Shown here one piece after another: positions 4,621 to 16,003 of a stretch of 33,640 nucleotides of DNA; the stretch's first letter is position 1; each line of letters starts with the position of its first letter. Position numbers and translations under genes: made by a program. This DNA comes from Catajapyx aquilonaris (Eukaryota): assembly GCA_000934665.2 (NCBI GenBank), contig JYFJ02004251.1:1-33640 (forward strand), read 5' to 3'. The notes under the pieces were generated by a model that had not been told where the DNA came from, ran no database searches, and saw nothing but the letters and a program-made list of their open reading frames with translations.

Positions 4621-4735
4621 TGGACAGCACGGTGAGGAGGAAGATGTAGTCGGAGAATGATATCAATCCGGCACTGCCCAGCTTGTAAAAAATGCTGTCC
4701 TCATCCAGTGCCAGCTCCAGTTTCTCCCTAGGGTT
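4621..4735 (-). CDS. MICU1: MICU1 coding exon ([38 protein letters not shown])
   Basis: ttttcag acceptor and gtaagt donor on -. 115 nt, phase 0 to 1. Closely matches human [28 protein letters not shown]. Not in the ORF track. Confidence 0.95.
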
Positions 4736-6310: not shown

Positions 6311-6348
6311 CTTCGGATCATATCGCTTGAACTGATCCAATCCCAGTC
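6311..6348 (-). CDS. MICU1: MICU1 coding exon ((G)LGLDQFKRYDPK)
   Basis: ctctcttttag acceptor and AAG|gtaagc donor. 38 nt, phase 1 to 0. Matches human LGLDQYIIKRFDGK. Confidence 0.93.
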
Positions 6349-7877: not shown

Positions 7878-8040
7878 CCTCTGGCTGCTTAAGACCTGGA
7901 GTCATGGATCGCAAGAAATCATCAGGAGTCATGAACACTTCATTTTCGCCATTTGGATGCAGGGTTTGCAACGTTGCAAAATATCGGAACACTTTATCTG
8001 GGGTGGAATACTGCCGGATGCGGTTTTCGTACTCGATTAT
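7878..8040 (-). CDS. MICU1: MICU1 mutually exclusive exon B ([54 protein letters not shown])
   Basis: ctaacag acceptor and G|gtaaca donor. 163 nt, phase 0 to 1, open frame. Homologous to human [24 protein letters not shown]. Absent from the ORF track. Confidence 0.94.
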
Positions 8041-8652
8041 CTGTTAGTTGGGAGACAGTAAATGTTGGGAGAAAAAAAAAAATTCAGGGGAAAAAAAGGT
8101 TTGAAGTAAATGTCATGAGTGTCACAAAATGCATCACAAATTGTTGAAATCAATGCAGTAACACTGGACCTGAGGTAAGGCCACACATATTCATATTCAC
8201 ACGGATTTGCATCCCTGCATCGCTTGCATTTTGGAGGGAAAAAACATATGGGATATAAGCAATACAATTGAGGATTTATATTTTTATGTAATTAAAGCAA
8301 TACAGTAAGAACACACCTGTTGTTAGCAGTTTACAAATATCCATGAAGCAAGAGTTGGCAGTAACCATGAAATTTTTGGAATATTTTCGTGGCAACATAA
8401 TACGTGAGCATGTCCATACAAAAATTAAAACCTACATACTGCAAATTCAATTCATTCTAAATTTATCCCCGCACTCATTTTAAAAAGGTCAACACTTCCC
8501 AATATCCGTCCTGTGTATAAATTCACAAAATCCTCAATTATTTAAGTGGGGAGAAAATTCTCACTGACATGTTAAAGCACACACAACCCTGGTGCTCCAA
8601 TAATAAAACGTCACTGCACTTTCCAAAAACAAATATGAACATGTGTGCTTAC

Positions 8653-8815
8653 CCACAGGCTGCATCATCCCAGGTGTAATTGATGTGAGGAGGTCAATTG
8701 GAGTCATGAACACTTCCGTCATCCCATTTTTAGCAATCACTTTGTAGGTTGCAAAATAACGAAATATCTTGTCAGGTGTGGAATAATTCCTCAGCCTGTT
8801 TTCATACTCGATTAT
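8653..8815 (-). CDS. MICU1: MICU1 mutually exclusive exon A ([54 protein letters not shown])
   Basis: ttccag acceptor and G|gtaagc donor. 163 nt, phase 0 to 1, same length and phases as exon B. Lies within ORF 8561..8845. Confidence 0.94.
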
Positions 8816-8936
8816 CTGGAATGTGTTGCAGCTTAACAAATGCAATTATGCTCATGTGACAAAATTACCTTGCAAAATGCCACAAAAAAACTCCAAACAA
8901 CCACAAATTATTTCATGCAGTATCTAGATTCAATTA

Positions 8937-9090
8937 TTATTCAAGAGCACAATAATTGCTCAGCTTGTTTTCATACTCAATTATCTGAAATGTGTTGCAG
9001 CGTAACGAATGCAATTACGATTACATTAAAAAAAACACTTTGCATACCACAATATCCACTAATTATTTCGTGCAGAACCTAATTCAATTA
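8937..9090 (-). pseudogene. Truncated tandem duplicate of the exon A acceptor and first 11 codons (pseudo-exon IIEYENKLSNYCALE*)
   Basis: 8951-9090 aligns by eye with 8782-8940. tttcag acceptor intact at 8985-8990; in-frame TAA at 8939-8937. Confidence 0.8.
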
Positions 9091-11772: not shown

Positions 11773-11932
11773 CTTGCGACCCCTAAACCCAACTTTGTCC
11801 TTCAGCTTTTTCTTCTTCTTATCACCCTCTTCAGCCTCATCAATGTCATCCTTGGATTTGGCGATCACTACTTGACCTTTTTCTGTGATGGAACTTGCTG
11901 CATCCACAGTTGGGACAACCAGTGACTTGATC
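11773..11932 (-). CDS. MICU1: MICU1 coding exon with polybasic motif (IKSLVVPTVDAAS...GDKKKKKLKDKVGFRGRK)
   Basis: tttcag acceptor and AAG|gtaagt donor. 160 nt, phase 2 to 0. The poly-Lys tract and GFRxRK correspond to human KKKKRSGFRDRK. Confidence 0.92.
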
Positions 11933-15530: not shown

Positions 15531-15758
15531 TTATATAAAGCAAGGTTTGTATGTATGTTTGTTTGTCCATGTTTGATTACCAAGGCAACCTGTTTTCATG
15601 CCAACAGCTGATTGTTGTTGATTGCAATGGCGCATGCAAAGTGCGTCTTCCATTATTCATTCGGTGCTACCCTTAGAAGCAATTTGAATCAAAGAGTCAT
15701 GGCCTGTCAAAAGAAACAACTCCGTGGCCACTTGTTCCGCTCAACCAAACCTGCTTAC

Positions 15759-16003
15759 CACTTCCAGTCGAGCGCAGGCAGGACGACTCCGGACCCGATG
15801 ATGAGATACCAAATCTTGGTGAAGAGCGGCGTGGACTGCGGGCGGTGGCCGAAGTCCTTGTAACCCCTCCTCTGACGGCCTCCTCCTGACCCACCATCCC
15901 GACCCTCAGCCTTGACGTTCCATGCAAGGCAGGCCTGTCCAGGAGGTCCAATCTGCCTGAGAAGCCTGGCCTGGACAACTCCAGGCCTCACCAAACGCAG
16001 CAT
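15759..16003 (-). CDS. MICU1: MICU1 first coding exon (mitochondrial targeting peptide and hydrophobic segment)
   Basis: tttccag|G ATG acceptor at 16005. MLRLVRPGVVQARLLRQ is Arg-rich and acid-free, followed by GYKDFGH and hydrophobic IWYLIIGSGVVLPAL. The TG|gtaagc phase-2 donor joins the next exon as TGG (Trp). Confidence 0.88.

Follow-up and report, generated by a model that had tools for sequence, protein, structure and literature searches.

MICU1 sets the Ca2+ threshold of the uniporter by plugging the pore, and the locus described here encodes the plugging segment twice. In a 33,640-nt stretch of Catajapyx aquilonaris DNA (the window, at its full length), the minus strand carries the 5' half of an arthropod MICU1 gene. 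A sequence-only reading of the window had claimed that tandem, mutually exclusive exons swap the MCU-contacting segment of MICU1 and that the two products may be gatekeepers of different MCU affinity. A conserved splice switch of this kind would let a single arthropod gene supply two gatekeepers.

All MICU1 exons reported below lie on the minus strand. The N-terminal coding exon was placed at 15725..15862 by similarity only (tblastn with 116 MICU1 proteins; best match, residues 44-85 of P0095). The constitutive exon upstream of the duplicated segment (11773..11932) is preceded by AG at 11934-11933, is followed after 11773 by the donor GTAAGT, and ends with ..GFRGRK at phase 0. It also encodes a polybasic, K-rich stretch (..GDKKKKKLKDK..) just before the uniporter interaction domain (UID). 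The constitutive downstream exon (6311..6348; 38 nt, phase 1 to 0) encodes (G)LGLDQFKRYDPK, and the flanking junctions that had been named, 11773 and 6348, were confirmed by reading the sequence. The next constitutive exon (4621..4735), established by sequence reading and tblastn, is the final MICU1 exon found within the window; the EF-hand exons lie outside it, beyond its start.

The MICU1 intron downstream of exon 4735..4621 hosts a second gene on the opposite strand. On the plus strand at 1027-2018, two overlapping ORFs match Pfam Sulfotransfer_2 (PF03567), with E values of 1e-12 and 4e-24 at profile positions 64-126 and 128-252, respectively, marking a nested carbohydrate-sulfotransferase-like gene. 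The reading frame switches between the two pieces, indicating an intron or a frameshift.

Between the two constitutive junctions lie exon A (8653..8815), the alternative UID exon, and exon B (7878..8040), the canonical-type UID exon. Both are 163 nt long, run from phase 0 to phase 1, are preceded by AG, and are followed by the donors GTAAGC (A) and GTAACA (B), all exactly as the sequence-only reading had placed them. Read from phase 0, each yields 54 residues plus one base. When the exons were joined in silico, the combinations of upstream exon, A, and downstream exon and of upstream exon, B, and downstream exon remained open, whereas the A+B join met a stop 16 codons into B and the skipping of both exons led to a stop 37 codons after the upstream exon. 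Since the reading frame breaks with both exons or with neither, as had been claimed, A and B are mutually exclusive. One in-frame option that contains part of B is also present, in which A is joined to B through an internal acceptor (163 + 120 nt).

Exons A and B are identical at 109/163 nucleotides (67%), and the protein identity is likewise 67%. By codon position, the identities are 38/54, 44/54, and 26/54 for the first, second, and third positions. The 60-nt stretches of flanking intron are no better than random (18/60 and 14/60 identical). Adjacent, homologous, equal in length and phase, and bounded by canonical splice sites, the two exons display the features by which mutually exclusive exons are recognised. 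Collectively, the structural claim is supported: the locus appears to carry a tandem, frame-enforced, mutually exclusive exon pair that would swap the MCU-contacting segment of MICU1, and the isoform pairs of flies described below add weight to this reading.

Both exons align to human MICU1 residues 111-164 (full-length chain 6k7y_I), which make up most of the UID. In a phmmer search against the PDB, exon B matched this chain at an E value of 2.7e-21 and exon A at 2e-18, and the strong matches of both exons (about 1e-18 to 1e-21) were to MICU1 chains only. Identity to the human segment is 39/54 for exon B and 35/53 for exon A. Pfam holds no model matching the 54-residue segment. The exon encodes the end of helix alpha1, the Pro124 turn, and the pore-blocking helix alpha2, followed, to judge by alignment position, probably by a small sheet and alpha3.

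The residues expected to touch the channel are common to the two copies. In the alignments, Y114, R117, R119, Y121, P124, K126, and R129 are retained in exons A and B, in agreement with the earlier claim, and so is the R-x-R-x-x-S motif, which has been claimed to be an Akt site. The copies part at the equivalent of R154, which, as had been stated, is Arg in exon B (DDFLRS) and Thr in exon A (IDLLTS) when aligned with human MICU1. The 11-residue sequence of the hairpin loop differs as well, as had also been noted. In exon A, charged residues at human positions 150, 154, 161, and 164 are replaced by Ile, Thr, Met, and Val.

The list of MCU-contacting residues on which the earlier reading relied (Y114, R117, R119, Y121, K126, R129, and R154) agrees with the accessible text of three papers (PMC6347451, PMC7434445, PMC10120041). 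Wang et al. (2020; PMC7434445) describe a pore mouth occupied by helices alpha1 and alpha2 and the Pro124 turn, and report that F106A, R117A, Y121A, K126A, and R129A relieved inhibition in mutagenesis; Y114, Y121, K126, and R129 are given elsewhere as conserved interface residues (PMC10120041). For R154, the main source is Phillips et al. (2019; PMC6347451), who report that among 18 conserved basic residues R119A and R154A alone abolish co-immunoprecipitation with MCU, that replacement by Lys is tolerated and replacement by Glu or Gln is not, and that R154A, R154E, and R154Q of the human protein abolish or strongly disrupt the interaction. In the same report, all mutants except R154Q, which was wild-type-like in the flux assay, were less competent in restoring regulation, and no basic residues other than R119 and R154 are described as conserved in MICU1 from animals to plants and protists. 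R154 has 0 occurrences in the accessible text of the cryo-EM paper (PMC7434445).

The sequence-only reading had suspected that similar isoforms may already be annotated in other insects. A protein search with exon A matched 575 proteins at E up to 1e-5, and 120 of these were listed. The highest-scoring proteins reach 117-137 bits because they contain the segment twice; most matches with a single copy score about 70-75. Among the 120 listed proteins, 19 have two full copies, arranged A-like then B-like in 18 of the 19. The listed sources with this A-then-B arrangement are Phlebotomus, Anopheles, Anthophora, Cotesia, Trichomalopsis, Vespula, Mischocyttarus, Cyphomyrmex, Athalia, Aromia, Exocentrus, Rhynchophorus, Danaus, Megalurothrips, and Timema; models of Rhodnius and several Drosophila are likewise A-like then B-like. 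Such models span Diptera, Hymenoptera, Coleoptera, Lepidoptera, Thysanoptera, and Phasmatodea, and with Rhodnius adding Hemiptera they cover seven insect orders. Further models fuse the A-type exon with B, in whole or in part (P0031-P0037, P0075, P0020, P0035), the RefSeq 'isoform X1' of Athalia rosae and of Anthonomus grandis are among the models chaining A to B, and some chained models use an internal CCAG/AT acceptor that restores the frame. The chained models are best read as gene-prediction artefacts which reveal that both exons are present in the DNA. A separate observation is that P0005, a crustacean-like MICU1 model, has two identical tandem copies of the segment, to be explained by a duplication of very recent date or by an artefact of assembly.

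Fly annotation bears out the suspicion. Same-species RefSeq isoform pairs differ in the UID segment in 8/8 cases and nowhere else in 7/8: Drosophila hydei X3/X4, D. erecta X1/X2, D. innubila X3/X2, Scaptodrosophila lebanonensis X1/X2, D. gunungcola X1/X2, D. nasuta X1/X2, D. miranda X5/X6, and Musca autumnalis X3/X4, the D. innubila pair having one additional 3-residue difference outside the segment. Annotation also includes both exon types in two species close to D. melanogaster, namely D. simulans and D. erecta. Outside the flies, P0053, 513 aa long and encoded on an intron-free contig of 2,255 bp, carries an A-type exon; compared with a damselfly B-type isoform, it is identical at 391/455 residues outside the exon and at 37/54 inside it. 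An intron-free sequence with an A-type exon indicates that the A form is transcribed in an odonate-like insect. The two types are also told apart by fixed or nearly fixed residues: column 17 is Ile in 13/13 A-type versus Val in 19/19 B-type segments, and column 51 is Ile in 11/13 versus Met in 17/19. The A/B pair is thus real, old, conserved, and already in public fly annotation, which lowers its novelty. Literature searches for MICU1 or CG4495 together with mutually exclusive exons or exon duplication found no paper discussing the pair, and CG4495 was not found in the supplements of the WebScipio mutually-exclusive-exon paper (PMC3228551).

The relationship of the two Catajapyx exons to those of insects was then read from the exon tree. 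Exon B groups with the B-type exons of a mayfly and a damselfly, to both of which it is 89% identical. Exon A falls inside the insect A-type clade (support 88/87, not starred), adjoining the Rhodnius A exon, on a terminal branch of 0.62 against a median of 0.072 (about nine times). A clade of exon A plus exon B was not rejected by the AU test (p 0.31, lnL difference 6.6). The genomic order, A upstream of B, is the same as in insects. Orthology of exon A with the insect A-type exon is therefore favoured by these comparisons, although not proven. The libraries searched yielded no close relative of exon A: among 1.84 billion representatives, a search with exon A gave 474 matches at E up to 0.001, and none of the best 150 of these was >79% identical to it; in metagenome contigs, the same query found 3 loci, each with one unpaired copy of 68-80% identity and none a close relative.

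Position 154 was surveyed in 171 distinct homologous segments (42 A-like, 77 B-like, and 52 other). All 42 A-like segments have Arg (exon A itself has Thr). The B-like segments comprise 57 with Arg and 20 with Thr, and the Thr-bearing ones are non-acidic at position 150 without exception (20/20); those that are named are dipteran, and the others share the same dipteran-type signature. The remaining 52 segments have Arg in 50 cases, Thr in one, and Ala in one. Among the newly added representative matches, Thr154 occurs in 14 of 125 motif matches, all 14 of the dipteran B type. On a 56-row tree, Thr154 needs three changes: in the dipteran B type, in exon A here, and in one copepod-like sequence. 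Exon A is the sole A-type copy with Thr154 among those examined, and R154T is one of three changes that it carries at nearly fixed positions, the others being F152L and K161M (human numbering). Thr154 in exon A, which reverses the fly pattern, is the one protein feature that we consider new.

Selection on the pair was assessed by the Nei-Gojobori method, which gave dN 0.29, dS 1.63, and dN/dS 0.18 for A against B. The ratio indicates that the pair evolved under purifying selection, and the dS of 1.6 together with unalignable flanking introns indicates that the duplication is old. A column-wise comparison used 13 insect A-type and 19 insect B-type segments, in which 26 columns are invariant in both types. 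Exon A retains 26/26 of these columns, and the 18 A/B differences avoid all of them; the chance of this if the differences were randomly placed is 1.4e-7.

The splice signals of the two exons are unequal. The exon B acceptor has a long T-rich tract (pyrimidine fraction 0.65 at -23 to -4), and the exon A acceptor has a mixed and weaker one (0.55 over the same positions). The order is opposite at the donors, where GTAAGC of exon A is stronger than GTAACA of exon B. The exon A donor is, however, predicted to be paired. A 5' arm at 8629..8655 (minus strand), which covers the exon A 5' splice site (GG/GUAAG) and the next 19 intron bases, is complementary to a 3' arm at 8172..8199 (minus strand), which precedes the exon B acceptor by about 130-160 nt and includes the sequence CUUACCU, complementary to the donor of exon A. 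The predicted stem has 24 bp with a 2-nt bulge and an energy of -30.6 kcal/mol, reached by 0/1000 dinucleotide shuffles of the intron (mean -17.5, sd 2.35), and the A-B intron contains it in its MFE fold as well as in its centroid fold. The equivalent duplex test for the exon B donor was unremarkable (30/300 shuffles). The whole A-B intron is no more stable than its shuffles (z -0.76); the specific stem alone stands out. On the predicted fold, the stem may mask the donor of exon A and thereby bias splicing toward B.

Two other accounts of the stem were considered. Competition between docking and selector structures of the Dscam type was rejected, as one significant duplex only was found, that of the exon A donor with 8199..8172, and alternative partners of the stem arms in the upstream and downstream introns did not beat shuffles (60/200, 87/200, 168/200, and 128/200). 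An abundant transposon was likewise rejected as its source, the donor arm having no second ungapped match with <=3 mismatches on either strand of the 33.6 kb.

Upstream of exon A, a truncated duplicate of it at 8951..9033 (minus strand; 83 nt, 84% identical to 8782-8864) comprises the acceptor together with the opening 34 nt of the exon. The spacing from the exon A region is 169 nt, and the frame of the duplicate stops after 15 codons, indicating that it is a pseudo-acceptor or decoy. A second duplicated piece at 9051-9081 matches 8896-8926. This partial tandem duplicate is recent; together with Thr154 in exon A and the donor stem, the partial third acceptor copy is one of the lineage-specific twists of the locus.

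Considering these results together, we regard it as likely that the tandem UID exons A and B are used one per transcript and yield two isoforms that may differ in docking. On this explanation, which is drawn from sequence, the gene would make two MICU1 isoforms by mutually exclusive splicing, and transcripts with both exons or with neither would be removed by nonsense-mediated decay. Exon B would be the default, being ancestral-like, keeping R154, and having the long T-rich tract upstream, and exon A would be a regulated minor form with a weaker acceptor and a donor buried in the 24-bp stem. The isoforms would be alike in the direct pore contacts (Y114, R117, Y121, K126, and R129) and would differ in the hairpin loop and alpha3. 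Because human R154 mutants wholly or largely lose co-immunoprecipitation with MCU, the A isoform is expected to dock more loosely or with other kinetics, so that its gate would leak more or be tuned differently.

It is plausible, as the sequence-only reading had proposed, that the two gatekeepers would differ in their affinity for MCU. Tufi et al. (2019; PMC6506686) report that Drosophila MICU1-A and MICU1-B each fully rescue null lethality and climbing and that either isoform suppresses the MCU:EMRE eye phenotype, B being 'slightly more effective'. The accessible text and supplements of that paper are silent on how MICU1-A and MICU1-B differ; the two may correspond to the exon pair. Any functional difference between A and B may be small, since R154Q is wild-type-like in flux, both fly isoforms rescue, and the cryo-EM paper is silent on R154 in its accessible text.

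It is possible, although on the whole unlikely, that both isoforms are made and are functionally equivalent, the pair being kept for regulation through tissue-specific or unproductive splicing and not for affinity. The rescue of the null and the suppression of the eye phenotype by either Drosophila isoform (PMC6506686) would suit such equivalence, as would the identity in A and B of the residues that directly contact the D-ring. The type-specific residues at columns 17 and 51, however, are constant in 13/13 of the A-type and 17-19/19 of the B-type segments, across insect orders from dragonflies to flies, which argues for distinct selected functions, and rescue by over-expression is a coarse assay in which B was nonetheless the slightly more effective isoform (Tufi et al., PMC6506686). 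An account in which exon A arose by a separate, lineage-specific duplication, its A-type likeness consisting of retained ancestral residues, appears improbable to us. It draws on the AU test, which tolerates a clade of the two Catajapyx exons; on the shared Ile17, Lys25, and Ile51, which also occur in outgroups (Limulus, decapods, and Ciona among them); on the absence from exon A of the derived Val24 and column-50 Ala of many insect A-type exons; and on the 84%-identical partial third copy, a sign that exon-scale tandem duplication is active at the locus. Against these stand the best tree, in which exon A is within the A-type clade, the gene order shared with insects, the high dS and unalignable introns of an old event, and Thr38 and Met55, which are common to exon A and A-type exons.

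Quite improbable, in our judgement, is the view of exon A as a relic, in which an ancient pair was inherited but only B is spliced, the weak acceptor and the masked donor of A having silenced it and drift having set in. Drift out of use would also fit the long terminal branch, the loss of R154 and Lys161 among the three unique changes at nearly fixed positions, the weak tract, and the sequestration of the donor in the -30.6 kcal/mol stem; the Arg154 kept in all 42 other A-like segments and the lack of any match above 79% identity among the best 150 point the same way. Exon A nevertheless has an intact frame, a canonical AG, and a strong GTAAGC donor, and it retains every insect-invariant column (p 1.4e-7) at a dN/dS of 0.18. 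This pattern is unlike that of a long-dead exon, so that only a recent loss of use is compatible with it.

Returning to the preferred explanation of two isoforms that differ in docking, a broader and speculative reading can be built on it, to which we give little credence as a whole. Insects and their relatives might splice between a tight-docking and a loose-docking MICU1. On the exon tree, R154 would have disappeared on three occasions, always together with a non-acidic residue at 150, and in both pair-bearing lineages from one copy only (B in flies, A here). The stem would set the choice in Catajapyx, and the R154-less isoform might serve as a non-blocking partner in MICU1 dimers in animals lacking MICU2.

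Clusters of mutually exclusive exons that arose by tandem duplication are familiar from arthropod genes such as Mhc, Dscam1, and others. The MICU1 pair resembles them in having homologous tandem exons of equal length and phase, with one used per transcript. Unlike those clusters, it consists of two copies only, and its exclusivity comes from frame incompatibility. It also differs from the Dscam type in that no competing docking and selector structures were found, a single stem lying over the exon A donor.

In comparison with the human UID (PDB 6k7y, 6wdn, 6wdo, 6xqn), all named contacts are present in A and B, and R154 is present in B. Literature searches found no paralogous alternative exon for this segment in human MICU1. 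Two paralogues without the UID contacts, MICU2 and MICU3, are reported to have diversified the vertebrate system instead (PMC7434445), and the micro-exon of the vertebrate muscle form MICU1.1 is reported to sit in another part of the protein (PMC5840707); together they provide vertebrates with a range comparable to that of the proposed arthropod switch.

The closest known system is the fly MICU1 gene (Drosophila CG4495). As in Catajapyx, the same exon is present there in an A-like and a B-like copy, one per isoform, with either UID copy spliced to GLGLDQ.., and in both animals Thr replaces R154 in one of the two copies. In flies it is the B-type exon that has Thr154 together with a non-acidic residue at 150, and the A-type exon keeps Arg, whereas the arrangement is reversed here. 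The natural replacement of R154 by Thr in one fly exon, and independently in the other exon here, constitutes a natural experiment on the role of this residue in gating.
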